A stretch of DNA of 34,609 nucleotides from the NCBI GenBank assembly GCA_048940645.1, contig JBHLOI010000037.1, positions 1-34,609 on the forward strand, in the 5' to 3' direction. Below the pieces are notes generated by a model that ran no database searches, was not told the origin of the DNA, and saw nothing but the letters and a program-made list of their open reading frames with translations. Origin of the DNA: Promethearchaeota archaeon (GTDB lineage Archaea; Asgardarchaeota; Lokiarchaeia; Sigyniarchaeales; SOKP01). The position numbers and the translations under genes are program-made. Within the stretch, counting starts at the first letter, position 1. The number at the start of each line of letters is the position of its first letter. Below are positions 5,539-33,607 of this stretch, piece after piece.

Positions 5539-6948
5539 ATGTATAGTATGAAATATGAAGAAAAAATCGCCAGAATTGAAAATATTGTAAACCAACCACT
5601 GAGAAAATTTAAACCAGAAGAATTAAGAGGCATCGTTGAAAGGTATGAAAATAACCATCTAAAATCAAAGCAAGCCTTCGAAAGAGCTCGCAAAGTTATT
5701 CCAGGGGGGGTTGAGCACAATCTAGCCTTTAATTTTCCTTTTCCATTGACTAGTAAACGTGTATATGATTGTTATATGGAAACCATTGATAATGTTATAT
5801 TATTGGACTATTTAATGTGTGGTGGACCTATAATATTAGGTCATAATTATAAACCTTTGACAGAAAAAATTCTAGAAGTTATTAAAGAATCTGCTCCATG
5901 CCATGGTATAACAAGTGAGTACGAGTATCTAGCAGCAGAACAGCTTCAAAAACATTTTCCTTCATGTGAAAATATTAGGTGGTTACAAACTGGGACTGAA
6001 ACAGATATGCTAGCTATTCGAGTAGCTCGTGTTTTCACAGGAAAAAAGCATGTTATAAAAGTAGGTGGAAGTTATCATGGATGGTCTGATCAGCTTGTTT
6101 ATGATATGCATATTCCAGGAACTAAAAGAATGGAATCTCATGGGATTCCTAAAGAAATATATAAATATATTGACTCAATTCCCCCAAATGATATTGAAGC
6201 CCTAAGAGATCTATTTAAGGAAAAGAAAAAAGTAGCAGCAGTACTTATAGAGCCAATGGGTGGAGAAAGTGGAGCAATCCCTATTCGACCCGAGTTTAAT
6301 AAAGAAGTAGAGGAAATTTGTCATCAAAATGATACACTCTTGATTAGTGATGAAGTTGTGTGCGCTTTTCGTCTACATATGGGAGGAGGTCAAGCTTATT
6401 TTAATTATACGCCAGATCTTTCTGTATTTGGCAAAATTGTAGGTCATGGATATCCTTCTGCAGCAGCATTAGGCGGTAGAGCTGACATTATGGCTACTGT
6501 AGCTGCTGGAGTGGGTGGGGGCGCTAAAAGAGCATATTGTGGTGGAACTTTAGCAGCGAATCCTTTAACTTGTGCTGCTGCCTATTGGGCAATAAAATAT
6601 GTAGAAGAAACTAATGCTACCGAGATTGCAGGTAAAGCAGCAAATAGACTCTCAACTGGATTGAATGAAGTATTTGAAAAGTATAATTTACCCTGGTTTT
6701 CTTACAATTATGGTGGCACAGTGCATTTCCACTCCTCGTGTGTATTTGGTTTGGATATTACTGATCATCAACAAGGTCCTCAGATAAAACATCGTAAAGA
6801 ATTTATGGAACATATGGGTGCTGCTTTAGTTGATGAAGAAATCATTAGTGTTGCTGGAAGTCGATTTTATACTTGTATGCTTCATAGCGATGAAATTATC
6901 GATAATACGATAAAAAAGATAGAAAATATCTGCCAAAAGATTGAATAA
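5539..6948 (+). CDS. Class III PLP-dependent aminotransferase (glutamate-1-semialdehyde aminomutase-like)
   Basis: Motifs IPGGV, TGTE, GSYHG, LISDEVV, DLSVFGK (PLP Lys) and GGTLAANP. Confidence 0.92.
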   Translation: MYSMKYEEKIARIENIVNQPLRKFKPEELRGIVERYENNHLKSKQAFERARKVIPGGVEHNLAFNFPFPLTSKRVYDCYMETIDNVILLDYLMCGGPIILGHNYKPLTEKILEVIKESAPCHGITSEYEYLAAEQLQKHFPSCENIRWLQTGTETDMLAIRVARVFTGKKHVIKVGGSYHGWSDQLVYDMHIPGTKRMESHGIPKEIYKYIDSIPPNDIEALRDLFKEKKKVAAVLIEPMGGESGAIPIRPEFNKEVEEICHQNDTLLISDEVVCAFRLHMGGGQAYFNYTPDLSVFGKIVGHGYPSAAALGGRADIMATVAAGVGGGAKRAYCGGTLAANPLTCAAAYWAIKYVEETNATEIAGKAANRLSTGLNEVFEKYNLPWFSYNYGGTVHFHSSCVFGLDITDHQQGPQIKHRKEFMEHMGAALVDEEIISVAGSRFYTCMLHSDEIIDNTIKKIENICQKIE

Positions 6949-7076
6949 CTCTTTATAATATTATTTTAATCTAATTTTATGTTTATTTTGAGCTTCTAAT
7001 TAATTAAGTAAAGTGATTTTGCAAATTTAGATTTAATAAATCAAGTATAATTATTTATATTTCCTTGAATTAATTC

Positions 7077-8444
7077 TTTTAAAAAATTTTATTTTAGAAA
7101 TCACTTATGCTTCATGAAAAATAATAAATTAAGCACATATTTTTTGGCTAAAAATATTTCCTATGAAATTCTTATTGAAGAACAGCTTCAACTTAAAAGT
7201 GAAGCTACACGGCGGGTATTAGAAAGATTTAGCAAAAAAAAGAGTTCACTGAAACTAAAATTTGTGTCATATAAAATTATAAATTCCATAATTTTTGGAA
7301 TATTACCGATTTTCCCATTAATAGCTTATTTGGAACTCACCAACTTTTTTGTAAGTGAATCAGTACATATTCAAATTGCTTTATTTACAAAAAGTTTGAT
7401 TTTCCAAATATTTTTTACTTTACAATTTTTAGACTTCTTTTTAATGGGCTTGTTCAGTTTAATAAATATTATGTCTGGAGAGATTTTTGAATGGTTTAAA
7501 ACACTGCCTTTACCCAGAAATAAATTGAAAAAATTAGCTTTTTTTACTATTATCCATAACTTTGATTTACCAATTCTGGCAAATATATTTGTATTTCCTC
7601 TAATAATGCTCTCCGCTACTCAAAATATAGTTATCTCTCTTATTTCACTTGGAACATCACTTCTGAATACTGTTTTTTCGATTACGCTATTAATAATTCT
7701 AGGGGAAAAAATCGCTAAACGGATAAAGATACAGAATATAAAGGCTAAAAAATCGCTCTTATTTCAATTATTAAATACTTTGAGTTATGCTTTAATTATA
7801 TTTGGGAGTATCTTTATAATCCAGATGACTTTAAGTTCATTAATCAACATTATGATGACTTTATTGAATTTATATTATTCTCCGCTTTATAACCTCATTT
7901 TAAGCTTAATACCATTTCCTTTTAATCCAAGCTATTTAATTTCATTATTTTCAAGCACATCTCCTATACCAGTTCAATTATGGCTTAATAGCTTATTTGG
8001 TTTAGCGTTATATTTAATTTTGATTTATTTCCTTTACCGTAAAGCTCTGAAATCTCTTAACAATATCATATCATTAAAATACAAATTTAGTAAAAACAAA
8101 TTGTTTGATAAAATTGATAAACTAAAAATTCGTATAAGGTCTGTAATTAAGGCTTTTATTCGAAAAGATTTATTAACGATCTCACGAAATTTACAAACAT
8201 TTATGGCGATCATCATGCCTGTAATTATGTCATTTGTGTTTATGACTTTTTTCAATATCAGTTTCATACGGGGTGAAGATTTACTAAGTGGAGATTTATA
8301 TTATACTTGGATTACCTTATTAGGATTAAGCCCGGTTCTCTCTGCGATGATAGTTTATAACTTATTAAATATGGAGGCATCCGGGAAAACGATAATGGGA
8401 ACCCTCCCTATTGTAGTTCGTGATCATGCCAAGGCGAAATTAGT
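7077..8444 (+). repeat. Direct repeat copy A (~1.37 kb), apparently identical to 10189-11556
   Basis: Offset 3112 nt. The translations are identical through ...AKAKLV and the DNA matched wherever I compared it. Confidence 0.92.
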
Positions 8445-9942
8445 AATTATGATAGTAATTCAAATTTTTGCCACATTAACTCCAACTTTAGTATATATAT
8501 TTCACTATAGATTTGTAGAATTGTTTTTAATTGTTCTTACTACATTACCATTTGTTTTGAATTTTTTAATACTTACTCTCTTGTTAAGAGTTCATCTATT
8601 TGGAAAGAAAAAATATTTGTATGTTCTTGATGAAATGCGACCGGAAAATAAGATGAGTAAATGGATTTTAATTTTCTTTGTGGAATATTTCGTCTATTTC
8701 TTAATTATATTAATTTCAAATTATTTATATTATAAATTTACCTTCACAGAATCCCTCCTGATTTTATTTATCATATCATTGAGTTTTATGGCAGTTTTGA
8801 AAATATTTTTTGATAAATTTTTCCCAAAATTTAAAACCGTCTATGATATGAAAAAGGAGATTGAAAAAGTACCTTCAAAATACATTATCAAGCGCCTAAT
8901 TTTTACGATTGCTTTTGGAATATATTTCATTTTTTATTTCTTTTCTCTTCTAATCTATCAAAATTTTGAAATTTTAGTGATACTCTTCTTTATTGGAATT
9001 TTTTTAACCCTAACTAAAGTTGTATCAAAAAGAATCCAACAATCTGGTTTAAAAAAGAGAAGAAGATCTATAAAAAAAAAAGTAATAATACAATATTTTA
9101 TAAAATCATTTTTTAAACATTTTTTAATCTTTTTTGTATTAATTACCTTAATTTTCATTTTTGATAATCAAATTTATCCTTGGAGTTACTATGCAGCCCC
9201 TGAAACTGTCATCCTACAAATTTATGAGTGGAATGATCTTCCATTATGGCAAAGGTATTTTTCATATTTAAGAAACTTATTTACAGGTAATTGGGAATAT
9301 TCAATCTCTTATTTTGAGATAGTTAAAGAAAAGATTCTAGAACATGGGACGCTAACCTTAACAATATTAATCATTCCCATTTGTTTAAGATTATGGTATA
9401 GCTTTAAATTTGATCATTTACAAAATCGCAAAAAAAAATGGAAAAAAGTTATTAGGATTAGTTCCCTATTATATTATTCTATTCCGAGCTTTCTTGTAAT
9501 TTTACTTTTGCTCTACTTCTTTGGTTTTGATATTTATTCTCAATTGAATTATAGAATCCTTTTAGCAATTTTAATTTTATCTATATCTACTCTAAGTAGA
9601 GTAGCAATTAATATAAGAAGAAGTGAGCCTTATACTGATCATTTAACTGATCATGGTAATTCAAATTTAACCCAAACCAATAATACAAAATTAAAATCTT
9701 TAAATTCGTTAAATTCCATAAAGCCTTTAAATATACTTACTATTTCTGCCCTTATTGGAGAATTAATGATTATAGAAAAAATGTTATATCTAAGGGGCCT
9801 AGGTTACCTTTTTCTTGAAGCATTAGATTACAGTAGGTTTATTGAAATTACTACGATATTTTTTCTATTTATTATAATCATTATCTCTATAAGTTTCATC
9901 CAATCGCTTTTTAAATTATATCTTCAGATGAAGTTATCTTAA
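7114..9942 (+). CDS. Polytopic membrane protein, array copy 1: ABC-2-type permease-like N-terminus fused to a degenerate DppB/OppB-like domain
   Basis: Two internal halves with WFKTLPL and MGTLPI...AKAKL plus FIRKDLL motifs typical of ABC-2 permeases. C-terminal LPLWQRYFSYLRNLFTGNW and IIEKMLYLRGLGYLFLEAL resemble DppB. Confidence 0.75.
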   Translation: MKNNKLSTYFLAKNISYEILIEEQLQLKSEATRRVLERFSKKKSSLKLKFVSYKIINSIIFGILPIFPLIAYLELTNFFVSESVHIQIALFTKSLIFQIFFTLQFLDFFLMGLFSLINIMSGEIFEWFKTLPLPRNKLKKLAFFTIIHNFDLPILANIFVFPLIMLSATQNIVISLISLGTSLLNTVFSITLLIILGEKIAKRIKIQNIKAKKSLLFQLLNTLSYALIIFGSIFIIQMTLSSLINIMMTLLNLYYSPLYNLILSLIPFPFNPSYLISLFSSTSPIPVQLWLNSLFGLALYLILIYFLYRKALKSLNNIISLKYKFSKNKLFDKIDKLKIRIRSVIKAFIRKDLLTISRNLQTFMAIIMPVIMSFVFMTFFNISFIRGEDLLSGDLYYTWITLLGLSPVLSAMIVYNLLNMEASGKTIMGTLPIVVRDHAKAKLVIMIVIQIFATLTPTLVYIFHYRFVELFLIVLTTLPFVLNFLILTLLLRVHLFGKKKYLYVLDEMRPENKMSKWILIFFVEYFVYFLIILISNYLYYKFTFTESLLILFIISLSFMAVLKIFFDKFFPKFKTVYDMKKEIEKVPSKYIIKRLIFTIAFGIYFIFYFFSLLIYQNFEILVILFFIGIFLTLTKVVSKRIQQSGLKKRRRSIKKKVIIQYFIKSFFKHFLIFFVLITLIFIFDNQIYPWSYYAAPETVILQIYEWNDLPLWQRYFSYLRNLFTGNWEYSISYFEIVKEKILEHGTLTLTILIIPICLRLWYSFKFDHLQNRKKKWKKVIRISSLLYYSIPSFLVILLLLYFFGFDIYSQLNYRILLAILILSISTLSRVAINIRRSEPYTDHLTDHGNSNLTQTNNTKLKSLNSLNSIKPLNILTISALIGELMIIEKMLYLRGLGYLFLEALDYSRFIEITTIFFLFIIIIISISFIQSLFKLYLQMKLS

Positions 9943-10020
9943 AATATTGAAATTGATTAGTATTTTAGAAAAAGAATTATTCAAAACTTAATAATTCCAT
10001 CTCATCCGAATAATAATTAA

Positions 10021-10074
10021 AATGTCAACAAGAGAATAAAAAAGGTAGAAAGTATTTTCCAAAAGATTGAATAA
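10021..10074 (+). pseudogene. Relic of the 3' end of the upstream aminotransferase gene
   Basis: Translates NVNKRIKKVESIFQKIE*, compared with IDNTIKKIENICQKIE* ending at 6948. The following spacer also resembles 6949-7113. Confidence 0.8.
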
Positions 10075-10188
10075 TTATTTAATATCTTATTTTATTCTAA
10101 TTTTAAATTTATTTTAATTGTTTAATTAATTTAGCATAGTGATTTAACAAAATTAGTATAATTATTTATTTTTCCTTGAATTAATTCT

Positions 10189-11556
10189 TTTTAAAAAATT
10201 TTATTTTAGAAATCACTTATGCTTCATGAAAAATAATAAATTAAGCACATATTTTTTGGCTAAAAATATTTCCTATGAAATTCTTATTGAAGAACAGCTT
10301 CAACTTAAAAGTGAAGCTACACGGCGGGTATTAGAAAGATTTAGCAAAAAAAAGAGTTCACTGAAACTAAAATTTGTGTCATATAAAATTATAAATTCCA
10401 TAATTTTTGGAATATTACCGATTTTCCCATTAATAGCTTATTTGGAACTCACCAACTTTTTTGTAAGTGAATCAGTACATATTCAAATTGCTTTATTTAC
10501 AAAAAGTTTGATTTTCCAAATATTTTTTACTTTACAATTTTTAGACTTCTTTTTAATGGGCTTGTTCAGTTTAATAAATATTATGTCTGGAGAGATTTTT
10601 GAATGGTTTAAAACACTGCCTTTACCCAGAAATAAATTGAAAAAATTAGCTTTTTTTACTATTATCCATAACTTTGATTTACCAATTCTGGCAAATATAT
10701 TTGTATTTCCTCTAATAATGCTCTCCGCTACTCAAAATATAGTTATCTCTCTTATTTCACTTGGAACATCACTTCTGAATACTGTTTTTTCGATTACGCT
10801 ATTAATAATTCTAGGGGAAAAAATCGCTAAACGGATAAAGATACAGAATATAAAGGCTAAAAAATCGCTCTTATTTCAATTATTAAATACTTTGAGTTAT
10901 GCTTTAATTATATTTGGGAGTATCTTTATAATCCAGATGACTTTAAGTTCATTAATCAACATTATGATGACTTTATTGAATTTATATTATTCTCCGCTTT
11001 ATAACCTCATTTTAAGCTTAATACCATTTCCTTTTAATCCAAGCTATTTAATTTCATTATTTTCAAGCACATCTCCTATACCAGTTCAATTATGGCTTAA
11101 TAGCTTATTTGGTTTAGCGTTATATTTAATTTTGATTTATTTCCTTTACCGTAAAGCTCTGAAATCTCTTAACAATATCATATCATTAAAATACAAATTT
11201 AGTAAAAACAAATTGTTTGATAAAATTGATAAACTAAAAATTCGTATAAGGTCTGTAATTAAGGCTTTTATTCGAAAAGATTTATTAACGATCTCACGAA
11301 ATTTACAAACATTTATGGCGATCATCATGCCTGTAATTATGTCATTTGTGTTTATGACTTTTTTCAATATCAGTTTCATACGGGGTGAAGATTTACTAAG
11401 TGGAGATTTATATTATACTTGGATTACCTTATTAGGATTAAGCCCGGTTCTCTCTGCGATGATAGTTTATAACTTATTAAATATGGAGGCATCCGGGAAA
11501 ACGATAATGGGAACCCTCCCTATTGTAGTTCGTGATCATGCCAAGGCGAAATTAGT
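10189..11556 (+). repeat. Direct repeat copy B, apparently identical to 7077-8444
   Basis: Same comparison as copy A. Confidence 0.92.
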
Positions 11557-13063
11557 TATGATGATAATAATTCAAATTATTGCCACATTAGCTCCAGTTT
11601 TAGTATATGTATTACATTATAGAGTTATAGATTTATTAATAACTATTCTTACTACACTTCCATTTGTTTTGAATTTTTTAATGCTTACTTTCTTGTTAAG
11701 AGTCCGTCTGTTTGGAAAGAAGAGATATTTGTATGTTCTTGATGAAATGCGACCGGAAAATAAGATGAGTAAATGGATCTTAATTTTCTTCCTCAATTAT
11801 CTTACTTATTTCTTATTCGTGTTGATATCTAATTACTTATATTATAATTTTGATGTTCTCATGTCCCTCCTAATTTTATTTATTATATCCTTAAGTCTTA
11901 TGGCAATTTTAAAAGTAATCTTTGATAATTTTTTCCCAAAATCTAAAGCTCATACCACTTTAAAAGCTGAAAAACCTGAGATTAAAAAAATTCCTTCAAA
12001 AATAATTATCCAACGATTAGTTTATACGATTGCGTTTGTAATATACATTAATTTTTATTTTATTTCAATTTTTCTGTACCAAAATTTTAAAATCTCATTT
12101 TTACTTCTCATTATTGGAATTTTCTTAACCTTAACTAAAGTAGTATCAAAAAGAGTCAAAGAATATGCTACAAAGAATAAAAAATTATCCATAAAAAAAA
12201 GAGAAATACTAAAATATATCGTAAATTCATTTTTAAAACATTTTTTAATCTTTTTTGTATTAATTACCTTAATTTTCTTTTTCTACAATCAAATGTATGT
12301 TAGTCCTTTAACCCCCGAACCTGTTCAACAAATCATCTCTGATTGGAACCAACTTCCATTATGGGAACGTTATTTAATATATTTAAAAAATCTATTTACA
12401 GGTAATTGGGAATATTCAATCGCATATTTTGAAAATAGAGAAATTAAAGAACAATTATTTGAAGATGGGTCAGGAACTATTACATTATTAATCATACCTC
12501 TTTGTTTAAGACTGCTATTCGCCTTTAAAGATGGGTCCACACAAGATCATAAAAAAGATTGGAAAAAATATATTGGAAAAGCTTCGATACTAGCTTATGC
12601 TATTCCGAGCTTTCTTATCCTTTTGTTTTTACCATACTACTTAGGATTTGAGGTTTTTTCTCAATTGAATTATAGAAATTTAATAGCAATTTTAATTCTA
12701 TCGTTCTCTAGTTTAGGTAGAGTTGCTTTTATTCAAAGAAAAAATGAAATCTCTCCCATTGATCATATAAACTCTGCTTTAATACAACAGAAAATATATA
12801 AAACGAGGAATAAGTCCAGCTTTAAACCTTTAAAATCGTTAAGTTTTTCAAATATATTTACAATTTCCTTCCTTATAGGAGAAATTACAATTGTAGAAAA
12901 ATTATTATTTTTAAGAGGATGGGGTTTTTCCTTCCTTTTTGCTTTAAGTCGTAGCATGTATATTGAAATAACTACTATATTTTTTCTGTTCAGTTTACTC
13001 ATTGTTTCTATAAGTTTCATAGAGTCGCTTTTTAAATTATATCTTCAGGTAAAGATATCTTAA
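10226..13063 (+). CDS. Polytopic membrane protein, array copy 2 (ABC-2-like + degenerate DppB-like fusion)
   Basis: Paralogue of copy 1, with C-terminal LPLWERYLIYLKNLFTGNW and IVEKLLFLRGWG. Confidence 0.75.
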   Translation: MKNNKLSTYFLAKNISYEILIEEQLQLKSEATRRVLERFSKKKSSLKLKFVSYKIINSIIFGILPIFPLIAYLELTNFFVSESVHIQIALFTKSLIFQIFFTLQFLDFFLMGLFSLINIMSGEIFEWFKTLPLPRNKLKKLAFFTIIHNFDLPILANIFVFPLIMLSATQNIVISLISLGTSLLNTVFSITLLIILGEKIAKRIKIQNIKAKKSLLFQLLNTLSYALIIFGSIFIIQMTLSSLINIMMTLLNLYYSPLYNLILSLIPFPFNPSYLISLFSSTSPIPVQLWLNSLFGLALYLILIYFLYRKALKSLNNIISLKYKFSKNKLFDKIDKLKIRIRSVIKAFIRKDLLTISRNLQTFMAIIMPVIMSFVFMTFFNISFIRGEDLLSGDLYYTWITLLGLSPVLSAMIVYNLLNMEASGKTIMGTLPIVVRDHAKAKLVMMIIIQIIATLAPVLVYVLHYRVIDLLITILTTLPFVLNFLMLTFLLRVRLFGKKRYLYVLDEMRPENKMSKWILIFFLNYLTYFLFVLISNYLYYNFDVLMSLLILFIISLSLMAILKVIFDNFFPKSKAHTTLKAEKPEIKKIPSKIIIQRLVYTIAFVIYINFYFISIFLYQNFKISFLLLIIGIFLTLTKVVSKRVKEYATKNKKLSIKKREILKYIVNSFLKHFLIFFVLITLIFFFYNQMYVSPLTPEPVQQIISDWNQLPLWERYLIYLKNLFTGNWEYSIAYFENREIKEQLFEDGSGTITLLIIPLCLRLLFAFKDGSTQDHKKDWKKYIGKASILAYAIPSFLILLFLPYYLGFEVFSQLNYRNLIAILILSFSSLGRVAFIQRKNEISPIDHINSALIQQKIYKTRNKSSFKPLKSLSFSNIFTISFLIGEITIVEKLLFLRGWGFSFLFALSRSMYIEITTIFFLFSLLIVSISFIESLFKLYLQVKIS

Positions 13064-13223
13064 TATATTGAAATTAAGCATAACCCATTTCATTCATTTT
13101 TTCCTTGGAATGAGTGATCAGAATTTTGGACAAAATTATAAGAGATTACTATGATAAATTATATATTTTTCCTTCAATTAAGTCTTTTAAAATAATTTAT
13201 CTTTGTAATCAACTAAAACTTCA

Positions 13224-15386
13224 ATGAAAGATAATAAAATAAGCACATATGCTCTCGCTAAAAATATTTCATATGAAATTATTATAGAAGATCAACTTCA
13301 ACTTAAGAGTGAAGCAGCAAGCCGATTATTAGAAAGATATAGTAAAAGGAGAACTTCTCTTAAAGTAAAATTTCTCTCATATAAAATTATAAACGCAATA
13401 ATTTTCGGAATATTACCCATTTTTCCATTAATAGCGTATATGGACATTAGCCGTTTTCTAGTGGGTGTACCAGTACACAACCAAATTTCTATATTTATAA
13501 AAAGCTTAATTTTTGAAATATTTTTTACTCTACAATTTTTAGATTTCTTTTTAATGGGGATTTTTAATTTGATTGATATTATGTCTGGAGAAATTTTTGA
13601 ATGGTTTAAAACACTCCCTTTACCACGAAAAAAATTGAAAAGATTGGCATTTCTCACCATTTTCCATAATTTTGATTTACCAATTTTAGCAAACACTTTT
13701 GTATTTCCAATAATAATGCTTTTTCTTACACAAAATGTAATTTTATTTTTTATCGCTCTTGGAACTTCAATTTTGAACATTATTTTCTCAATTAGCGTAC
13801 TAATTATCCTAGGCGAAAAAATCGCTAAGTTGATACGAAGGCAGAATCTAAAGACTAAAAAGTCACTTTTAGTTCAAGTATTAAATACATTTAGTTATGT
13901 CATAATCATTTTTGGAAGTATCTTTATTATCCAAATGATTTTAAATTCATTGGTTACTATTCTCATCGCTAGTTTAAATTTATATCGTTCTCCACTTTAT
14001 AATGCTATTTTGAGCTTAATTCCATTTCCTTTTAATCCCAGCTATTTAATGTCAATATTTACCACTACTTCCCAAATAGACATTCCTTATTTGTTAAATC
14101 CCCTTTTTGGTTTTGGTTTGTATATAATTGTAATTTATGTTCTTTTTCGTAAAGCTCTGAAGTCACTTAATAATATAATATCATTAAAATATAAAGTAAA
14201 CAAGAGGAATTTATCAGATGAAAATAATAAGTCAAAAATTCGTATCACTTCAACAATTAAGGCGTTTCTTCGAAAGGATTTATTAATTGCATCAAGGAAC
14301 ATCCAAGCTTTTATGTCCTTTATTATACCAGTAATGATGTCATTTATTTTCATGATTTTTTTTAATATTAGTTATGCCGGTGGTGGAGATTTATTAAGTA
14401 GAGACTTGTATTACAATTGGATTATACTGCTAGGATTCAGCCTTGTGATTTCTGGCATGATAGTTTATAATTTATTCAATATGGAGGCTACTGGAAGAAC
14501 GATAACAGGCTCTTTACCTATTGTTTTTCGTGATCATGCCAAGGCTAAATTAATTATTATGATTTTAATTCAAATAATTGCCACATTAACCCCAGTTTTA
14601 GTATATGTATTTCATTACAGGTTTGTAGAGTTATTATTAACTGTTCTGGCTACATTGCCATTTGTTTTGAATTTTTTAATTTTAACATTCTTATTACGGG
14701 TCCGTTTATTTGGAAAGAGAAAATATTCTTATGTTCTTGAAGAAATTCTACCAGAAAATAAGGTAAGTAAATGGGTGTTAATTTTTGGTTTCGAATATTT
14801 TTTATATTACTTGATTCTTGCGACATCTAATTTTTTATATTTTAATAATAATTTCGTTGTTTTATTTCTAATTTTTTATATCATATCAGTAATTTTTACG
14901 GTAATTTTAATAAGTATTTTTAATAAGTTTTTTCCAAAATATAGCAAGGAAGAACCCCTAGTTAAGAAACCAGTATCAAAATTCTTTAAAAGGGTTCAAT
15001 TTACTGTATTTAGCTATATTATATACTTTTTTCCTTTTTTGATTTCTACATTAATTTTCAACTTTTTTGAAATTTCATTTTTTTTAGGAGGTTTATTCAT
15101 TTTGACTGGAGTTATCTTAATTCGTGAAGTCATAAAAAGTCCTAATAAAAAACATAAAAACAGATCCCACCAGATTAATTTAGAATATAAAAAACCAGAT
15201 GATGATACACGAGTATTGATTTTATTTATTCGTATATTATATTTTAATATATTTTTTAGTTTTATCTTAGTTTATGGCTTCTTTTTGGGAGGTTTATTTG
15301 TTTTAATCGGAATTATTTTAATTCTTGAAATTATATTCTCCTCTCTAAATAAAAATAAAAAAAATCCCCACCAGACTAATTTATGA
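13224..15386 (+). CDS. Polytopic membrane protein, array copy 3 (ABC-2-like; DppB-like domain deleted; ends at TGA)
   Basis: Paralogue with a duplicated 2-TM module at its end. The family C-terminus continues in frame after the TGA. Confidence 0.75.
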   Translation: MKDNKISTYALAKNISYEIIIEDQLQLKSEAASRLLERYSKRRTSLKVKFLSYKIINAIIFGILPIFPLIAYMDISRFLVGVPVHNQISIFIKSLIFEIFFTLQFLDFFLMGIFNLIDIMSGEIFEWFKTLPLPRKKLKRLAFLTIFHNFDLPILANTFVFPIIMLFLTQNVILFFIALGTSILNIIFSISVLIILGEKIAKLIRRQNLKTKKSLLVQVLNTFSYVIIIFGSIFIIQMILNSLVTILIASLNLYRSPLYNAILSLIPFPFNPSYLMSIFTTTSQIDIPYLLNPLFGFGLYIIVIYVLFRKALKSLNNIISLKYKVNKRNLSDENNKSKIRITSTIKAFLRKDLLIASRNIQAFMSFIIPVMMSFIFMIFFNISYAGGGDLLSRDLYYNWIILLGFSLVISGMIVYNLFNMEATGRTITGSLPIVFRDHAKAKLIIMILIQIIATLTPVLVYVFHYRFVELLLTVLATLPFVLNFLILTFLLRVRLFGKRKYSYVLEEILPENKVSKWVLIFGFEYFLYYLILATSNFLYFNNNFVVLFLIFYIISVIFTVILISIFNKFFPKYSKEEPLVKKPVSKFFKRVQFTVFSYIIYFFPFLISTLIFNFFEISFFLGGLFILTGVILIREVIKSPNKKHKNRSHQINLEYKKPDDDTRVLILFIRILYFNIFFSFILVYGFFLGGLFVLIGIILILEIIFSSLNKNKKNPHQTNL

Positions 15387-15488
15387 ATTAAAATTCTCTT
15401 TGGAAAGTTTTTATTTTCTAAAATCATTCTCTTTCTAAATTTCATACAATTGCTTTTTAAATTATATCTTCAGGTAAAGCTATCTTAA
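15387..15488 (+). pseudogene. In-frame C-terminal remnant of copy 3 beyond the TGA
   Basis: Reads IKILFGKFLFSKIILFLNFIQLLFKLYLQVKLS*, matching copy 1 FIQSLFKLYLQMKLS* and copy 2 FIESLFKLYLQVKIS*. Confidence 0.85.
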
Positions 15489-15541
15489 TATATTGAAATT
15501 GAACATAATCCCATTTCATCCATTTTTTTCCTTGGAATGAG

Positions 15542-15559
15542 TGTTCAGATTTTTGAACA
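15542..15559. promoter_or_regulatory. Inverted repeat TGTTCA-N6-TGAACA, possible operator upstream of copy 4
   Basis: Perfect 6-bp palindromic arms ~30 nt upstream of a TTATATA box. A degenerate version (TGATCA-N6-TGGACA) sits at the homologous site upstream of copy 3 (13115-13132). Confidence 0.3.
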
Positions 15560-15654
15560 TTAAATAAAAGGGATAACTATAATAAGTTATATATTTTTCC
15601 TTCAATTAAGTCTTTTAAAGTAATATATCTTTTTAATTAACTAATTTAACTTTA

Positions 15655-18600
15655 ATGAAAGATAATAAAATAAGCACATATGCTCTCGCTAAAAATATTT
15701 CATATGAAATTATTATAGAAGAAAAGCTTCAACTTAAAAGTGAAGCGACAAGCAGATTACTTGAAAAGTATAATAAAAAGAGAACTTCTCTTAAAGTAAG
15801 ATTTCTTTCATATAAAATCATAAATGCAATAATTTTCGGAATTTTACCTATTTTTCCATTAATGGCCTATTTGGATATTAGCCGTTTTCTGGTGGATGTG
15901 CCAGTACACCATCAAATTTCAATATTTATAAAAAGCTTAACTTTTGAGATTTTTTTTACTTTACAATTTTTAGATTTCTTTTTAATGGGGGTTTTTAATT
16001 TGATTAATATTATGTCTGGAGAAATATTTGAATGGTTTAAAACCCTCCCCTTACCCCGAAAAAAATTGAAAAGATTAGCTTTTATCACGATTTTTCATAA
16101 TTTTGATTTGCCAATTTTAGCAAACACGTTTGTATTTCCAATCATAATGCTTTTTGTTACACAAAATATAATTGTATTTTTTATTACTCTTGGAACTTCA
16201 ATCTTAAATAGTATTTTTTCAATTAGCGTACTTATTATACTAGGCGAAAAAATAGCTAAATTAATACGAAGGCAGAACATAAAGGCTAAAAAATCCCTAT
16301 TAATTCAAGTATTAAACACATTCAGTTATGCAATAATAATTTTTGGAAGTATCTTTATTATCCAGATGATTTTAAATTCATTGGTTACTATTCTCATTGC
16401 TAGTCTAAATTTGTATCGTTCTCCTTTTTATAATGCGATTTTGGGTTTAATTCCTTTTCCTTTTAATCCTAGTTATTTAATATCTATATTTACTACCACT
16501 TCCCAAATAGAAATGCCCTATTTGTTAAATCCTATTTTCGGTTTGGGTTTGTATTTAATTTTAATTTACTTTGTTCTTCATAAAGCCCTAAAATCACTTA
16601 ACAATATCATATCATTAAAATATAAAATAAACAAGAGAGATTTTTCAGATAAAAAAGACGGACCAAAAATTCATACAACTTCGAAAATTAAGGCTTTTAT
16701 TCGAAAGGATTTATTAATTGCTTCAAGGAATATCCAGACTTTTATGTCTTTTATTATGCCAATCGTCATGTCATTCGTTTTCATGATTTTTTTTAATATC
16801 AGTTATGCGGGTGGTGGAGACTTATTAAGTAGAGATTTATACTATAATTGGATTATATTACTAGGATTCAGTCTCGTCATTTCTGGTATAACGGTTTATA
16901 ATTTACTCAATATGGAGACTACTGGGAGAACAATAATAGGCGCCCTACCCATTGTTTATCGTGATCATGCCAAGGCTAAATTAATTATTATAATTTTAAT
17001 TCAAATTATTGCCACATTAGCTCCAGTTTTAGTATATGTATTACATTTTAGGTTTATAGAGCTATTATTAACAGTTCTGGCTACATTACCATTTGTTTTG
17101 ATTTTTTTAATTTTGACTTTCTTATTAAGGGTCCGCTTATTTGGAAAGAGAAAGTATTCTTATGTTCTTGAAGAAATTCTACCAGAAAATAAGACAAGTA
17201 AATGGATATTAATTTTTGGTTTCGAATATTTTCTATATTACTTAATTCTTGTAATATCTAACTTTTTATATTTTAGTAATAATTTCATTGGTTTATTCCT
17301 AATTTTATTTATTATAGCAGCAATTTTTACGGCAATTGTAATAAGTATTTTTAATAAATTCTTTCCGAAATTTAGAAAAAAAGAATCCTTGGTTAAGAAA
17401 CCAAAATCAAAATTCGTCAAGAAGTTCCTATTCATTATACTTAGCTACATCATATACTTCATTGCTTTCTCAATTTCCAATTTAATTTATAACTTTTTTG
17501 AACTTTCATTGTTATTAGGTGGATTATTCATTTTAACAGGAGTTATTTTAATTCTTGAAGTTATAAAATCTCCTAAAAAGAAATATAAAAAGAAATCTCA
17601 ACAGAGATTTAAAAAAGAAATCTCAACAGAGATTCTAAATTTAGAAGGTAGTAGGCACCTATTAATTACTTCCATTCGTGTAATATATGTAATTTCGTCC
17701 ATTTTTTTCATTTTAGTTTATGGTTTTTTTTTAGGAGGTTTATTAATTTTAACCGGAATTATTATAATTCTTGAACTTATAATATCCTCTTTAAATAAAA
17801 AGAAATCCATCCAAAATAATTCAAAAATTAAGAATCCTCCGAAAAAAAAAGTGGATATAGTACGCTATATAGTAAATTCTTTTTTAAAACATGTATTAAT
17901 CTTATTTGGGGTGTTATTCCTTAATTTTATCCTTCTTCGGAGTTTACCGGGAGAACCTCTTAGCTCTTATTTACCTGCTAGACCTGTTGCTGAGGAGTAT
18001 TGGAGTTTATATTATGAATTAGGATTTCATTTGCCATTATGGCAACAATTCTTCCTATATTTAGGAAGATTATTTACAGGTAATTGGGGAAATGCTATAA
18101 AGTATTCAGGAATTCCAGTTAAAGAACTCATACTTGAAAGAATATCCAACTATTTTATAATACTAATCATTCCAATTTCTATACTACTATTTTTCAAGAT
18201 TAGAACTTCATTTAAAGAAACTAATAAAAAAAGAATCTATAGAAAGTTGATTAGGGTTATCCTATTATTATTTTTTTCTATCCCTAGTTTTTTACTAGTG
18301 TTATTTATATATTTGTTAAGTAATGAGATTACAATTGAAGTATTTACCCAATTGATTATTATGACATCAATACTGTCTATATCATTGATAAGTAAACTGA
18401 CTTTTATGAAAAGAAGAGATATGCTTAATAATTATGATCCATCCAGTTATGCTATTAAAAAAAAGAAAAGTTTCTTAAATTCTTCAGGTTTCCTTATTAC
18501 TTCAATTTTAATTTCGGAAATGATATTAATAGAAGCTGTATTAAATCTGCAAGGATTAGGTCCCCTTTTTGTGGAAGCCATATGCGTGAGAGACATATTT

Positions 18601-18762
18601 CTAATAGAAGGCATACTTTTTATCTTTACTCTAACCATAGTCTCTGTAAGCTTTCTGCAATCACTTTTAAAATTATATTTTCATATAAAAAACATTAAAA
18701 ATTCTGAATTCAATAAGCTATTGAAAACCAAATCAACCTTAAAGGGCATTCCCATTCATTAA
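15655..18762 (+). CDS. Polytopic membrane protein, array copy 4 (ABC-2-like + duplicated 2-TM module + best-preserved DppB-like domain)
   Basis: LLRSLPGEP...ELGFHLPLWQQFFLYLGRLFTGNWG...PVKELILERI and LIEAVLNLQGLGPLFVEAICVRDIFLIEG match the DppB/OppB consensus. Confidence 0.8.
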   Translation: MKDNKISTYALAKNISYEIIIEEKLQLKSEATSRLLEKYNKKRTSLKVRFLSYKIINAIIFGILPIFPLMAYLDISRFLVDVPVHHQISIFIKSLTFEIFFTLQFLDFFLMGVFNLINIMSGEIFEWFKTLPLPRKKLKRLAFITIFHNFDLPILANTFVFPIIMLFVTQNIIVFFITLGTSILNSIFSISVLIILGEKIAKLIRRQNIKAKKSLLIQVLNTFSYAIIIFGSIFIIQMILNSLVTILIASLNLYRSPFYNAILGLIPFPFNPSYLISIFTTTSQIEMPYLLNPIFGLGLYLILIYFVLHKALKSLNNIISLKYKINKRDFSDKKDGPKIHTTSKIKAFIRKDLLIASRNIQTFMSFIMPIVMSFVFMIFFNISYAGGGDLLSRDLYYNWIILLGFSLVISGITVYNLLNMETTGRTIIGALPIVYRDHAKAKLIIIILIQIIATLAPVLVYVLHFRFIELLLTVLATLPFVLIFLILTFLLRVRLFGKRKYSYVLEEILPENKTSKWILIFGFEYFLYYLILVISNFLYFSNNFIGLFLILFIIAAIFTAIVISIFNKFFPKFRKKESLVKKPKSKFVKKFLFIILSYIIYFIAFSISNLIYNFFELSLLLGGLFILTGVILILEVIKSPKKKYKKKSQQRFKKEISTEILNLEGSRHLLITSIRVIYVISSIFFILVYGFFLGGLLILTGIIIILELIISSLNKKKSIQNNSKIKNPPKKKVDIVRYIVNSFLKHVLILFGVLFLNFILLRSLPGEPLSSYLPARPVAEEYWSLYYELGFHLPLWQQFFLYLGRLFTGNWGNAIKYSGIPVKELILERISNYFIILIIPISILLFFKIRTSFKETNKKRIYRKLIRVILLLFFSIPSFLLVLFIYLLSNEITIEVFTQLIIMTSILSISLISKLTFMKRRDMLNNYDPSSYAIKKKKSFLNSSGFLITSILISEMILIEAVLNLQGLGPLFVEAICVRDIFLIEGILFIFTLTIVSVSFLQSLLKLYFHIKNIKNSEFNKLLKTKSTLKGIPIH

Positions 18763-18780
18763 TCCATAGCAAAAAGTCAA

Positions 18781-18840
18781 TTTTTAATCTTTTTTATTGC
18801 CTTACTTTTAATCTAAGAAGATTATTCACGGGTAATTGGG
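18781..18840 (+). pseudogene. Decayed fragment of a further DppB-like module
   Basis: FLIFFIALLLI followed by frameshifted NLRRLFTGNW. 18813-18840 matches 18061-18088 at 24/28 nt. Confidence 0.65.
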
Positions 18841-18976
18841 TAATTAGGGATATAACAGATTGCCTTATAATGCACCTACTAAAAATTGAAAATGTAACTT
18901 TGATTGACAATGAATTTTTTAAGTTATAAAATCGAAATTTTATTATATAAATTAATAAGTTGAGTGGAGAAAATTA

Positions 18977-20002
18977 ATGGGAGAGCAAATAGAAATTACG
19001 AAACCTTCAAACCTATTTAATGGGGATGGTTCTCTTGTACAAAGAGGCTGGGCTCGAAAGCCAATATTAAAGTACAATAAGGAATATATAGGAAAAGGAT
19101 GGACTCGAATAAAAGAATGGGATCACTTTTCAGTTTTAAACAAAGATTTTGGATTTCAATTAACAATCGGAGATATTGGATATCTTACGCAGATGAGTTA
19201 TGTGTGGCTTGACTTTAAAAATAAAAAGCGAGATGGGCGAGTGCTTTTCAAATTTTTTACTAAGTCTAAACTGTTACCATTAAATTCCTTAGAGGACAAT
19301 ACTGTCGAATTTCCAACTAAAAAGTTTAAAGCCACTATCTCAAAACAAGGGAATAAGCGAATTCTCTTCATTGATGACTCTTCGTTCGAAAAAAAAGGAA
19401 TAAAAGGTACTATAACACTTGAAGATAATCCTAAATGGGATAATACAGTGGTTGTAACTGGGTATCAGGAGGATCCAAGACTATTTTATTATAACCATAA
19501 GATAAATATGATGCCCGCAGAGGGTAAATTGCGATTAGGAGAAAAAGCTTATGAATTCAATCCAGATTCATCATTCGGTTTAATGGATTGGGGACGAGGA
19601 ATTTGGCCATATAAAACTCATTGGTTATGGGGTTCTGCCTGCGGAATCGTCGATGGAATACCTGTTGCTTTTAATATTGGCTACGGATTTGGAGACCTTT
19701 CGACGCACACAGAAAATATTATTTTTTATAATGGAAAGGCCCATAAAATTGATGAAATTACCTTTCACCATGAAAGGCGGAACCCTTCAAAGCCATGGAA
19801 ATTTACCAGTAACGATAATAGATTTAATATGATGCTTAGAGCTCTAATTCCTCATACAGAGAAAATTAATCTCGGAATTATAAAACTAAATTCTTCATTA
19901 ATGCATGGATTGTACAATGGTGATTTAATATTAGATAATGGTGAGAAAATTCATATTAACAATATGTTAGGTCATGCTGAAGATATATTATGGCGCTGGT
20001 GA
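18977..20002 (+). CDS. DUF2804-family protein
   Basis: Motifs GWARKP, RIKEWD, FYYNHK, DWGRGIWPY...WLWGS, FNIGYGFGD and TEN. Confidence 0.85.
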   Translation: MGEQIEITKPSNLFNGDGSLVQRGWARKPILKYNKEYIGKGWTRIKEWDHFSVLNKDFGFQLTIGDIGYLTQMSYVWLDFKNKKRDGRVLFKFFTKSKLLPLNSLEDNTVEFPTKKFKATISKQGNKRILFIDDSSFEKKGIKGTITLEDNPKWDNTVVVTGYQEDPRLFYYNHKINMMPAEGKLRLGEKAYEFNPDSSFGLMDWGRGIWPYKTHWLWGSACGIVDGIPVAFNIGYGFGDLSTHTENIIFYNGKAHKIDEITFHHERRNPSKPWKFTSNDNRFNMMLRALIPHTEKINLGIIKLNSSLMHGLYNGDLILDNGEKIHINNMLGHAEDILWRW

Positions 20003-20043
20003 TTATAAAATTAAAAAAAATTATATTTTAGTTAATAATATTA

Positions 20044-20733
20044 GTGATCATTCTGAAAATAGTTATTTTTGAGCCTCATCCAGACGATCTATTGATGGGA
20101 GCTGGGCAAATCATTTTTAATTGGATTGAACAAGGACATGATATTCACATTATAACGGTTACAGATGGTCGTGCTTGCTACAGAAAAATGAAAGATGATA
20201 AAACGAGTGAGGCTTTAAAAATGACCGAGGATGAAATAGCCATAGAAAGATTAACTGAAGCTAAAAAATCAGTAGAATTTTTAGGTCTGCCTTCGGAAAA
20301 TCTTCACTTATTAAAATTCCCCGATGCAAAAGCTCAAGATTATATAAAGGAAGGCATTAAGACAGTTATACCAATTATTAAGGACGTAGATCGATTATTA
20401 TTACCTAGTGACCATAACTTCCATGAAGACCATCAAGCAACTCATGATATCGCGATTGGAGCTGCTAAAGTATTACAACTAAGAAATATTGAATATTGGG
20501 TATATTTTGTGCCACAATATGGTAGATTTAATAAAGATTCAAAAAATAAGTTAATAACTGTAAAAATTTCCGAAGAATTAAGGCAAAAATTAACTGAGTG
20601 GCTTCAAATCTATCAATCTCAAAAAAGAATGAAAAATACATGGAAATTATATACAAGGTATCTGAAATTTACTAAAGAGTTCATATATGGAAAGTATAAA
20701 TATGAAGATATTGGAAAATTTTATAATTTTTAA
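20044..20733 (+). CDS. PIG-L/LmbE-family deacetylase (start may be CTG at 20053)
   Basis: Zn-binding PHPDD and HEDH motifs, plus TVTDG, RLTEA and YQSQ. Confidence 0.9.
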   Translation: MIILKIVIFEPHPDDLLMGAGQIIFNWIEQGHDIHIITVTDGRACYRKMKDDKTSEALKMTEDEIAIERLTEAKKSVEFLGLPSENLHLLKFPDAKAQDYIKEGIKTVIPIIKDVDRLLLPSDHNFHEDHQATHDIAIGAAKVLQLRNIEYWVYFVPQYGRFNKDSKNKLITVKISEELRQKLTEWLQIYQSQKRMKNTWKLYTRYLKFTKEFIYGKYKYEDIGKFYNF

Positions 20734-30224: not shown

Positions 30225-31373
30225 TTATAGCATAAATTTCTCATATTCAGAATTACAAGGATGATTATCAGTAACCCAAAATTCCTTTTTAAGTGGAAAA
30301 AGAATTATTGAGCCTAAGGTTCCAGCAGATGGTCCATGTGTGCAGACTGTAAAATCATCTGGCTCCCTATTATCATGATCACTCAAAATATCTTTTATTA
30401 TATTCATCGTAATTTGACCATTGTATTTTATTAATAGTTCAATTTCTCTGTTATACCGTCTTATAGGAGATTCTATAGGTGAAATATCCATATCATCCAT
30501 TTTAAATCGAACATATTCTGGTAAATTAGCATTTTTCAGTTCTTTAGTTTGATAATGATTAGTATGAGCCAAAATGTTATTTTTAGGTCGACGGATTGCA
30601 TGCCGAGTACTTGTAGTTTCAATTACACACGTATCTCCTGAGATATCCATAAGTCCATAATGACATCCATTTGCACGGCCAGTGAATTTAATAATAAAAT
30701 CAATAGCTTCTTGCGTTGTTGCACAAGTTTCTAAAACGTCTTGTACCATGAGGGTACCAGGAACACCTTTTAATCTAAAATCTAGCGGCTCTTTTTTCCA
30801 TGCACGACCATAATTATAACCAATTGCTAAACCTTTCTCATTTAGCCCCATGTGGCAACCTGTAAGAGGGTATTGGGTAAAATTTATATTTCTATAACCA
30901 CTTTCTGGTATTTCTTCACGAATTACTTGGAACGGCTGGAGTACATTGGGAAAATCATAATTACGTCCAAAGATCATTGATTTATCTGATGTAGCTTCAG
31001 GGAGAGCGAATATCATTGAACAAGCTTGAATTGGAGGATTTTTATAGATAGACTTTGGATCACCTGACATCACCTCGATAAAGTGAGCTCCATATATAAT
31101 TCCTCTTTTTATTCCTGCACCTTTTTTTAGAGCCATCATTTTTTCAAACTGATTAGGAAGAAGTTGTTGTAAAGGCTTCTTTATATTCTTCTTGCCCATA
31201 ATACCTAAAGCAAATTTAACTATTGAAAGAGGTATTAGTTTGGAGGTTACTTCAGAAAACATTTTTGAATGGAATACAATATCAAACATATTATGAATTT
31301 TATCTTTCAATTGCTCTCCCTGTTGGAATCCTCTTTCAGCAGGATTTCCTTCTAACTTAATAAAATCAACCAT
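30225..31373 (-). CDS. Peptidase C45 / acyl-CoA:6-APA acyltransferase-family Ntn hydrolase
   Basis: Autocleavage Cys in QACS, plus GRNYD, GLNEKGL and HTNH. Confidence 0.9.
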   Translation of the reverse strand: MVDFIKLEGNPAERGFQQGEQLKDKIHNMFDIVFHSKMFSEVTSKLIPLSIVKFALGIMGKKNIKKPLQQLLPNQFEKMMALKKGAGIKRGIIYGAHFIEVMSGDPKSIYKNPPIQACSMIFALPEATSDKSMIFGRNYDFPNVLQPFQVIREEIPESGYRNINFTQYPLTGCHMGLNEKGLAIGYNYGRAWKKEPLDFRLKGVPGTLMVQDVLETCATTQEAIDFIIKFTGRANGCHYGLMDISGDTCVIETTSTRHAIRRPKNNILAHTNHYQTKELKNANLPEYVRFKMDDMDISPIESPIRRYNREIELLIKYNGQITMNIIKDILSDHDNREPDDFTVCTHGPSAGTLGSIILFPLKKEFWVTDNHPCNSEYEKFML

Positions 31374-32971: not shown

Positions 32972-33607
32972 CTGAAAACCAAACAAAATGATCCGAATAA
33001 TTTAGAATTAGCGATAAGTTTGGCTAATATAAATGATGCTGGTGGTATCCATAATATCTTAATGGAAAATCTAGTTGAAATCGAAGATTTTGATAGCATA
33101 TCTAAAGAAGAAAGGTTTATCTTAGAAGAAAATGGTTTTTTAAGAAAAAAAGTAGATGTGGAGTATTATAAACATTTAATTGATGATCCTACTGTTGATG
33201 TTTATATTGCAAAATATAAAAATAGAAATGTAATTGGCTTTGCTACGTTCCATAAAGATGAGACTGATGTTAAGTCTGTTCGTGATACTTCAATAAATTT
33301 ACATATTATTGATGATCTCTCTAAAGAATTATTAACAAGTAAAAATAAGAAGTTCACCTATTTGGATCAGATAAGCATTATTCCTAAATTTCAACGAAAA
33401 AAAATAGGAACAGCTATTTTAAATAAAGCTTTAGAAGAATTAGAAGATCCTATAGTTTCATTTATTGTGAAAGTTCCTATAACAAATAAAGCATCTGCTT
33501 ATTGGCACGAACAAAATGGATTTAAACTCGCAGCAACATGTGATGGAGCTTATAAAGGAAAAATTTTTGAATGGTGGATATATATCCACTGGAATAGAAA
33601 AAATTAA
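32972..33607 (+). CDS. GNAT-family N-acetyltransferase (start CTG 32972 or TTG 33020)
   Basis: YLDQISIIPKFQRKKIGT (motif A) and NKASAYWHEQNGF (motif B). Confidence 0.88.
   Translation: MKTKQNDPNNLELAISLANINDAGGIHNILMENLVEIEDFDSISKEERFILEENGFLRKKVDVEYYKHLIDDPTVDVYIAKYKNRNVIGFATFHKDETDVKSVRDTSINLHIIDDLSKELLTSKNKKFTYLDQISIIPKFQRKKIGTAILNKALEELEDPIVSFIVKVPITNKASAYWHEQNGFKLAATCDGAYKGKIFEWWIYIHWNRKN

Follow-up and report, generated by a model that had tools for sequence, protein, structure and literature searches.

Can a transporter membrane domain of the exporter type and one of the importer type belong to a single polypeptide, and what would drive such a protein where no ATPase is encoded beside it? 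The question is raised by contig JBHLOI010000037.1 of a Promethearchaeota archaeon (GenBank assembly GCA_048940645.1), analysed over its entire length of 34,609 nucleotides (the window, also contig C73 of a genome bin of 3.83 Mb, 89.6% complete). Classes of ATP-binding cassette (ABC) transporters are defined by the folds of their membrane domains, and as a rule every fold has a dedicated coupling helix that connects it to an ATPase of its own. An AT-rich region of the window (about 25-27% G+C) carries four paralogous open reading frames (ORFs) of 942, 945, 720 and 1035 aa, all on the + strand and arranged head to tail, as described in a first-pass annotation made from the sequence alone. In that annotation all four shared a two-halved ABC-2-like permease, copies 1, 2 and 4 ended in a DppB/OppB-like importer permease, and the ensemble was put forward as the best candidate in the window for an undescribed system. 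In our judgement the array probably encodes type V exporter permeases that are energised in trans and bear an accessory membrane module of DppB descent, which could no longer be energised for import. The genes and their parts are:

7114-9942, + strand: copy 1, 942 aa; scaffold at about 7114-8838, linker hairpin of two transmembrane helices (TM) at about 8839-9093, DppB-like domain at about 9094-9939.
10226-13063, + strand: copy 2, 945 aa; scaffold at about 10226-11950, two-TM linker at about 11951-12217, DppB-like domain at about 12218-13060.
13224-15386, + strand: copy 3, 720 aa; scaffold and four-TM linker (duplicated hairpin), without the DppB-like domain.
15387-15488, + strand: relic of the DppB-like domain of copy 3; open frame of 33 codons after the TGA at 15384-15386.
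15655-18762, + strand: copy 4, 1035 aa, about 22 TM; scaffold at about 15655-17379, four-TM linker at about 17380-17859, DppB-like domain at about 17860-18759.
18430-18471, + strand: EAA-loop position of copy 4, NYDPSSYAIKKKKS, between TM4 and TM5 of the DppB-like domain; without the EAA-G motif.

The four copies were aligned end to end, and invariant residues are dense across the first ~570 aa. This N-terminal part, the scaffold (about 575 aa), is the Pfam domain PF09847, 12TM_1, a family of uncharacterised 12-TM membrane proteins. The match reaches 33.6 bits in copy 3 and 36.7 bits in the N-terminal domain of copy 4 taken alone (gathering threshold 33.2 bits); full-length copies 1, 2 and 4 stay under the Pfam reporting threshold for 12TM_1, which is matched by 18 of 25 family members at E <= 0.1. 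No mention of PF09847, 12TM_1 or DUF2074 was found in the literature searched. An AlphaFold model of the scaffold domain alone, built on 56 homologues (pLDDT 74, pTM 0.63), was compared by VIA with about 48,000 PDB representatives. The top 16 matches are all transmembrane domains (TMDs) of type V/ABC-2 exporters, with Z values of 8.4-12.7; the scaffold matches are CcmB, ABCG2, ABCH, ABCG1, ABCG5/8, ABCA4, ABCA3, ABCG25, NosY, PmtCD and Wzm. Residues 6-323 and 341-573 match one type V TMD each, in agreement with the two halves reported for the first ~570 aa by the first-pass annotation, and Cdr1 and 8k1m_B, a 12-TM chain of a mycobacterial pump, align over both halves. The best Foldseek matches are the mycobacterial pump and ABCG5/8 (probability 0.96-0.98), none at E <= 0.001. 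A search of PDB sequences with the scaffold profile gave nothing meaningful, the single match having an E value of 0.38. The model predicts an interface helix at the N-terminus and a coupling loop between TM2 and TM3. At the level of the modelled fold, each gene would encode the complete membrane part of a type V exporter, with two six-helix halves per chain and both termini in the cytoplasm.

The closest known arrangement is that of the mycobacterial ABC-2 efflux pump (8k1m/8k1n/8k1p), a 12-TM permease with a separate ATPase, in which, as in the scaffold and in Cdr1, two halves of the same fold lie in one chain. The fold of the halves is shared by type V exporters generally (ABCG, ABCA, Wzm-Wzt, CcmAB, NosFY). 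In contrast to all these, the array proteins lack sequence similarity to solved chains and an adjacent ATPase, and add linker helices and a second, unrelated TMD.

This second TMD is a six-helix domain found at the C-terminus of copies 1, 2 and 4. Pfam matches fall below threshold, BPD_transp_1 scoring 21.5 bits against 26.4 in copy 1 and BPD_transp_1_N 16.2 against 23.8 in copy 4; in copy 2 the Pfam scan matched neither. Two BPD_transp_1 stretches in the frame of copy 1, 9424-9618 and 9718-9933, sum to 38.1 bits. Queried with the C-terminal 310 residues of copy 4, a set of 1.84 billion representatives yielded 4364 phmmer relatives at E <= 0.001, mostly 300-345 aa long. BPD_transp_1 is found in 100, and BPD_transp_1_N in 96, of 103 aligned sequences (97 phmmer relatives plus six DppB-like sequences of the same genome). 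The module is also matched by NCBIfam Opp2B (E 8.7e-22), and copy 4 is 41% identical to the DppB of the same genome over residues 716-889. Modelled as a single domain, the module has a pLDDT of 89.7; Foldseek aligns it at E 4e-8 with the B subunits of the OppABCD, DppABCD and DppBCDF cryo-EM structures. VIA gives Z values of 14-20.7 over 228-272 residues for OppB/DppB chains, against 8-11.5 for DppC/OppC and other type I importer TMDs. The C-terminal module is a DppB/OppB-type importer permease by descent, and the similarity to the DppB fold on which the earlier proposal hinged is present in the model. The six-helix B-type fold, the N-terminal TM1, the scoop/alpha3 region and the PGLG loop are all shared with solved DppB/OppB permeases (8j5q_B, 8z21_A, 8wd9_B, 8z1v_A). 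The module differs from them in its degenerate EAA helix, in the deletion of the TM3-TM4 extracellular loop, which is present in the DppB of the same genome, and in being fused behind an exporter TMD.

The EAA helix is the site of contact between DppB and DppD in published structures (PMC12136057). The canonical DppB of the genome, encoded in an operon on contig C68, has the intact loop DYIRTARAKG...NALIP. At the same position, fused homologues (copies 1, 2 and 4 and nine others) show 14-37 residues with an abundance of Lys, Asn and Ser, and the EAA-G motif was found in none of the 12 examined. A leading RxxML is the sole piece of the loop surviving in copy 4, where this position is the part of the module model with the lowest pLDDT. 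The replacement of the loop by unrelated Lys-rich sequence, as first described, is accordingly right for the motif and too strong for the loop as a whole, which is degenerate. Lacking the EAA coupling helix, the module would therefore not be energisable as an importer.

Other parts of the module have fared differently. Within the fused clade the best conserved segment is the extracellular alpha3 helix, LPLWQxxFxYLxxLFTGNW (0.81); the worst conserved are the scoop (0.42) and the EAA position (0.49). The TM1-alpha3 scoop region is known to touch the binding protein DppA (PMC12136057). Compared with a paralogue, alpha3 shows 95% amino-acid identity and just 77% nucleotide identity; recent gene conversion from dppB or from the related genes on contig C6 described below was for this reason rejected as the source of its conservation, which points rather to selection. 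With EAA lost, and alpha3 and the helix bundle kept, the module is therefore most likely a non-catalytic accessory of the membrane part, such as a lateral or extracellular-face partner, or an oligomerisation surface.

Scaffold and module are joined by two linker helices in copies 1 and 2, and by four in copy 4; the protein of copy 3 terminates behind its four linker helices. Joining an exporter TMD that ends inside to a DppB that starts inside calls for an even number. A hydropathy scan of copy 4 detected 21 of its ~22 helices, and loops rich in Lys and Arg alternate strictly along the whole chain, through scaffold, four linker helices and module, with both the N-terminus and the C-terminus inside. 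In copy 3 the frame continues past the TGA for 33 codons and ends with LFKLYLQVKLS and a stop, which is the C-terminus of the family; copy 3 therefore formerly had a DppB-like module.

The fusion is not peculiar to one assembly. Several NCBI, JGI and ENA assemblies labelled Asgard/Promethearchaeota contain fused proteins, about 930-1040 aa long. Logan contigs of two runs, which may be the source samples, bridge the copy-4 junction with zero differences (17164-18751 and 17164-19000), and another covers the copy-3 relic region, again with zero differences (14733-15616). An assembly or gene-calling artefact might be suspected, a perfect repeat of 1368 nt being unusual within a metagenome-assembled contig, and the contigs of relatives ending inside the array. 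The full-length fused ORFs in independent assemblies, the junction-spanning contigs, the coherent topology through the junction and the existence of separate orthologues for each paralogue type make this explanation barely credible. The support at the junction called for by the first-pass annotation is hence available.

As already noted by that annotation, the array is unaccompanied. Profile searches of the contig found no ABC_tran, SBP_bac_5 or further BPD_transp_1 match and no DppC; the array locus differs from DppABCDF/OppABCD in lacking DppC, DppD/F and DppA. Approximately 37-42 ABC ATPase genes or domains are present in the genome. One of these, on contig C59, encodes a 272-aa ATPase and overlaps the start of a gene for an 863-aa 12TM_1::CPBP paralogue, which is 31% identical to the scaffold over residues 5-613 and ends in a CPBP (Rce1-like) protease. 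The pair of genes lies at L011:3943-7339. The C59 ATPase is DrrA-like, and is the sole ATPase of its type in the genome. DrrA-like ATPases serve ABC-2 permeases. The ATPase-permease::CPBP unit is tandemly duplicated in the relative G008 (L022:7356-14263). Most genomes of the genus have frames of the C59 type, about 870-890 aa long and frequently arranged in tandem ATPase-permease pairs, the adjacency of the ATPase having been verified at two loci, C59 in G000 (the genome of the window) and G008. The C59 protein resembles the bacterial ABC permease/CPBP protease fusions of NCBIfam NF041647 in having a polytopic domain C-terminal of an exporter-type permease, as the array proteins also do; it matches this family in the CPBP part only (51.5 bits against a cut-off of 435). 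The array proteins differ from NF041647 in that the partner is a degenerate importer permease and not a protease, and no Rce1-like (CPBP) match was obtained for the four window proteins with Pfam or NCBIfam.

A direct junction of the two components is provided by P0051, a database protein of 873 aa found in 11 contigs. P0051 scores 193 bits with the window copies against 151 with the C59 paralogue, and its C-terminal nucleotide-binding domain (NBD) shares 65% identity with the C59 ATPase (363 bits; the second-best ATPase of the genome reaches 154). When the scaffold is scanned in 12-residue windows over 56 family members, the four best conserved include LPIVYRDHAKAK (431-442), SGEIFEWFKTLP (121-132) and AFIRKDLLIASR (347-358). 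Windows 121-132 and 431-442 are the predicted TM2-TM3 coupling regions, one per half, and 347-358 is a predicted second interface helix. These putative ATPase-contact motifs are equally conserved in ATPase-less and ATPase-linked clades. From motif conservation, P0051 and the C59 gene we infer that the window proteins would still dock an NBD supplied in trans; each scaffold would be powered by a pair of DrrA-type ATPase subunits from a gene at another place in the genome, and within the right family the C59 gene is the sole candidate. With a cognate-type ATPase encoded on C59, and predicted ATPase-contact motifs conserved, the array is not a self-contained motorless system. To this extent the idea of an undescribed system has to be narrowed; it holds for the fusion itself, which is confined to few genomes and for which no description was found. 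Searches of annotations and papers turned up no case of a type V exporter TMD fused to a type I importer TMD, and such a fusion is not mentioned in the consulted part of an Asgard transporter survey (PMC7997004).

The history of the array can be traced at its chromosomal site. Further features of the region are:

7077-8444 = 10189-11556, + strand: identical block, 1368 nt, 100% identity; includes the first 1331 nt of copies 1 and 2 and the 37 nt before them.
10036-10156, + strand: copy of the 3' end of the aminotransferase gene, 81% identical to 6910-7030, in the spacer after copy 1.
7045-7113, + strand: conserved upstream region of about 70 nt with a TTTTAAAA box; also at about 10157-10225, 13155-13223 and 15586-15654.

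The array occupies a slot flanked by genes for a class-III aminotransferase and for DUF2804, and this slot is conserved in the relatives of the genus examined; an AMP-binding enzyme, a 286-aa ORF and an FGGY kinase are encoded upstream. The content of the slot varies. It is a single unfused gene of about 650 aa in G010, G018 and G020, a 569-aa gene in G007, a 1086-aa fusion to Acyl_transf_3 in G012, and DppB-fused copies in G000, G019 and G022. The fused form was found in five of 42 genomes of the genus, the other two being G013 and G046, for both of which the slot is unconfirmed (the G013 contigs, C215, C216 and C244, are short and show no flanking genes, and the G046 locus was not fetched). 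Downstream, PIG-L is replaced in G010 and G018 by an ABC ATPase and a small ORF. All homologues considered, the C-terminal partner of the scaffold may be missing (~650 aa), a CPBP protease, Acyl_transf_3, Acyl_transf_3 plus TPR, an ABC ATPase, or the DppB-like module. A variable accessory domain on a conserved scaffold, as first proposed, is what is seen in these homologues and, at the identical syntenic slot, in relatives with unfused or Acyl_transf_3-fused forms, and the architecture is no widespread annotated family. Modules are swapped at one conserved site, where the scaffold stands alone or is joined to Acyl_transf_3 or to the DppB-like module, and CPBP and NBD partners occur at other sites; the 12TM_1 family accordingly lends itself to the study of how Asgard membrane proteins accrete domains. 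The range of partners (CPBP protease, Acyl_transf_3, TPR, NBD) gives no more than a hint that an exported surface molecule might be processed or modified.

Maximum-likelihood phylogeny unites the fused modules in a single clade (100/100) whose stem is long, at 1.28 substitutions per site; the fusion of the scaffold with a DppB-like module arose once. The copy-1, copy-2 and copy-4 types each have orthologues in other genomes, and predate the split of at least four species. The sister group (97/99, with a flagged risk of long-branch attraction) consists of DppB::DppC fusions without EAA and of stand-alone proteins. These, found in the same archaeal lineage (C6 proteins of 614 and 618 aa; P0078, P0080, P0087), are likewise derived from DppB, with EAA deleted and neither an ATPase nor a binding protein nearby; the DppB::DppC fusions differ from the array modules in keeping the TM3-TM4 extracellular loop and a DppC-like half, and in lacking an ABC-2 scaffold. 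In G000 the two fusions are encoded in tandem on C6 (L013:5905-7749 and 7902-9758), next to FAD_binding_4, CCG and FTR1 genes, and the EAA loop of the B half is cleanly deleted. Frames of about 560-650 aa resembling the C6 genes occur in many genomes of the genus, in addition to the EAA-less stand-alone forms P0078, P0080 and P0087. Proteins of the C6 type may be an uncharacterised, ATPase-independent offshoot of Dpp/Opp permeases.

The relic of the aminotransferase 3' end marks the boundary of a duplicated unit, and the array would therefore have been formed by tandem duplication in situ, at the conserved slot. The 1368-nt identical block looks like a recent gene-conversion tract homogenising the scaffolds of copies 1 and 2, the C-terminal domains of which are ~59% identical at the protein level despite the identical upstream block; conversion would keep the scaffolds alike. 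The upstream region with the TTTTAAAA box is found 5' of all four copies, which suggests that each has its own promoter. Ratios of nonsynonymous to synonymous substitutions (dN/dS, NG86) between orthologues are lowest in the scaffold (~0.15), and higher in the module (0.30-0.45) and in the linker (0.2-0.5).

Several observations weigh against exporter permeases energised in trans and equipped with a DppB-derived accessory module, and some of them are the basis of rival explanations. The confidence of the scaffold model is middling (pLDDT 74), and Z values of helical bundles need caution; an hhalign comparison of the two scaffold halves, pairing two TLP...R...KL motifs, is marginal (E 0.058), being suggestive of an internal duplication and no proof of it. 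The module model leans on an alignment dominated by canonical DppB proteins; the sequence homology of the module stands independently of the model. As to the motor, no ATPase adjoins the slot gene at any of the loci examined (G000, G007, G010, G012, G018, G019, G020, G022). In two relatives an ABC ATPase is encoded 2-3 kb from the slot gene, on the opposite strand and beside a small ORF of its own. The C59 ATPase comes with a permease partner of its own, and a crude TM-count/hydropathy heuristic, applied to a genome that is 89.6% complete, detected no orphan ATPase, every ABC-2-type ATPase adjoining a permease by this count. The scaffold at the slot might, on these grounds, have become independent of ATPases, serving as a channel, a scramblase or a structural membrane protein, the ATPase being truly missing. 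Against this speak the predicted NBD-contact motifs, which are the best conserved and equally so in the ATPase-less clade, the joining in P0051 of an array-type permease to a C59-type NBD, and the low dN/dS of the scaffold; we regard the loss of ATPase dependence as unlikely. A slightly better chance, still well on the unlikely side, is given to the DppB-like module being a functionless passenger in slow decay on a scaffold that alone matters, an explanation which overlaps with that of an accessory module. It would account for the disappearance of the EAA loop and of the TM3-TM4 extracellular loop, for a scoop that is shortened in the copy-1 and copy-2 types, and for the long stem of the clade. 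It would equally fit a module less constrained than the scaffold, with two to three times its dN/dS, altogether lost in copy 3. In G019, moreover, the copy-4-type gene is in two pieces (L018, G019:C192, 1901-4743, - strand), an ORF of 687 aa for the scaffold and one of 190 aa for part of the module, and may be a pseudogene or a natural split form. A decaying passenger is hard to reconcile with a frame kept open in three paralogue lineages older than the split of at least four species, with dN/dS values well under 1, with an alpha3 helix strongly conserved through synonymous change and with a positive-inside topology kept throughout. The module is retained under purifying selection weaker than that acting on the scaffold. 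Co-option of the importer permease, as claimed by the first-pass annotation, would be supported by dN/dS values below 1 and by this retention of three paralogue types across species, and is qualified by the looser constraint, by the loss in copy 3 and by the split in one relative.

Two further possibilities concern what the module might contact. It could still be half of a working peptide importer, pairing with a DppC-type permease and DppD/F from elsewhere; its fold is specifically of the B type, and the genome has one dppBCDF operon, a lone DppC duplicate on C40 and nine SBP_bac_5 domains. The EAA coupling motif, through which DppB contacts DppD, is nonetheless absent in all the fused homologues examined, and the lone DppC duplicate is found in G000 only and not in the other fusion-bearing genomes, so that an importer half is disfavoured and appears very improbable. 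The C40 DppC was considered as a dedicated partner of the module and rejected, being a 94% duplicate of the operon gene with a full extra copy in G000 only. This DppC-type permease (34160-35170; L048:4161-5168) has an intact EAA loop, lies between Ras-family small GTPase and radical SAM genes, and could be a recent duplicate or a binned strain variant. The nine SBP_bac_5 domains, on contigs C28, C11, C46 and C68, are in surplus relative to the one canonical dppBCDF translocator (C68); C28 includes one open frame of 2167 aa with at least two such domains. A more speculative proposal, improbable at present, is that the selected extracellular face of the module (alpha3, and the scoop in the copy-4 type) docks a surplus family-5 binding protein, gating or informing the type V exporter, in a lineage that would repeatedly have turned the TMD of a type I importer into an ATPase-independent module (fused, DppB::DppC and stand-alone). 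If true, a binding-protein-gated type V exporter would be an undescribed coupling of importer and exporter parts.

For the type V exporter permease with a DppB-derived accessory, which we continue to favour, the parts would be these: a scaffold energised by an ATPase encoded at another site, two or four linker helices leading into the six-helix module in copies 1, 2 and 4, and a module keeping its extracellular alpha3 helix and helix bundle. Exporter-type and importer-type membrane domains are here found in one polypeptide, the importer part selectively stripped of its motor contact, and a transporter TMD would be reused in nature as a passive membrane module. The narrow distribution limits the practical weight of the finding.

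Among the other genes of the window, those for an AAT/choloylglycine-hydrolase-type Ntn hydrolase (30225-31373, - strand, 382 aa) and a GNAT acetyltransferase (33020-33607, + strand, 195 aa) have no apparent connection to the array. The DUF2804 gene (341 aa, 359.6 bits) and a gene for a PIG-L family de-N-acetylase (229 aa), separated by 41 nt, are found directly 3' of the array (18977-20733). An antisense ORF of 160 aa inside copy 3 (13298-13780, - strand) is most likely a chance open frame in AT-rich sequence.

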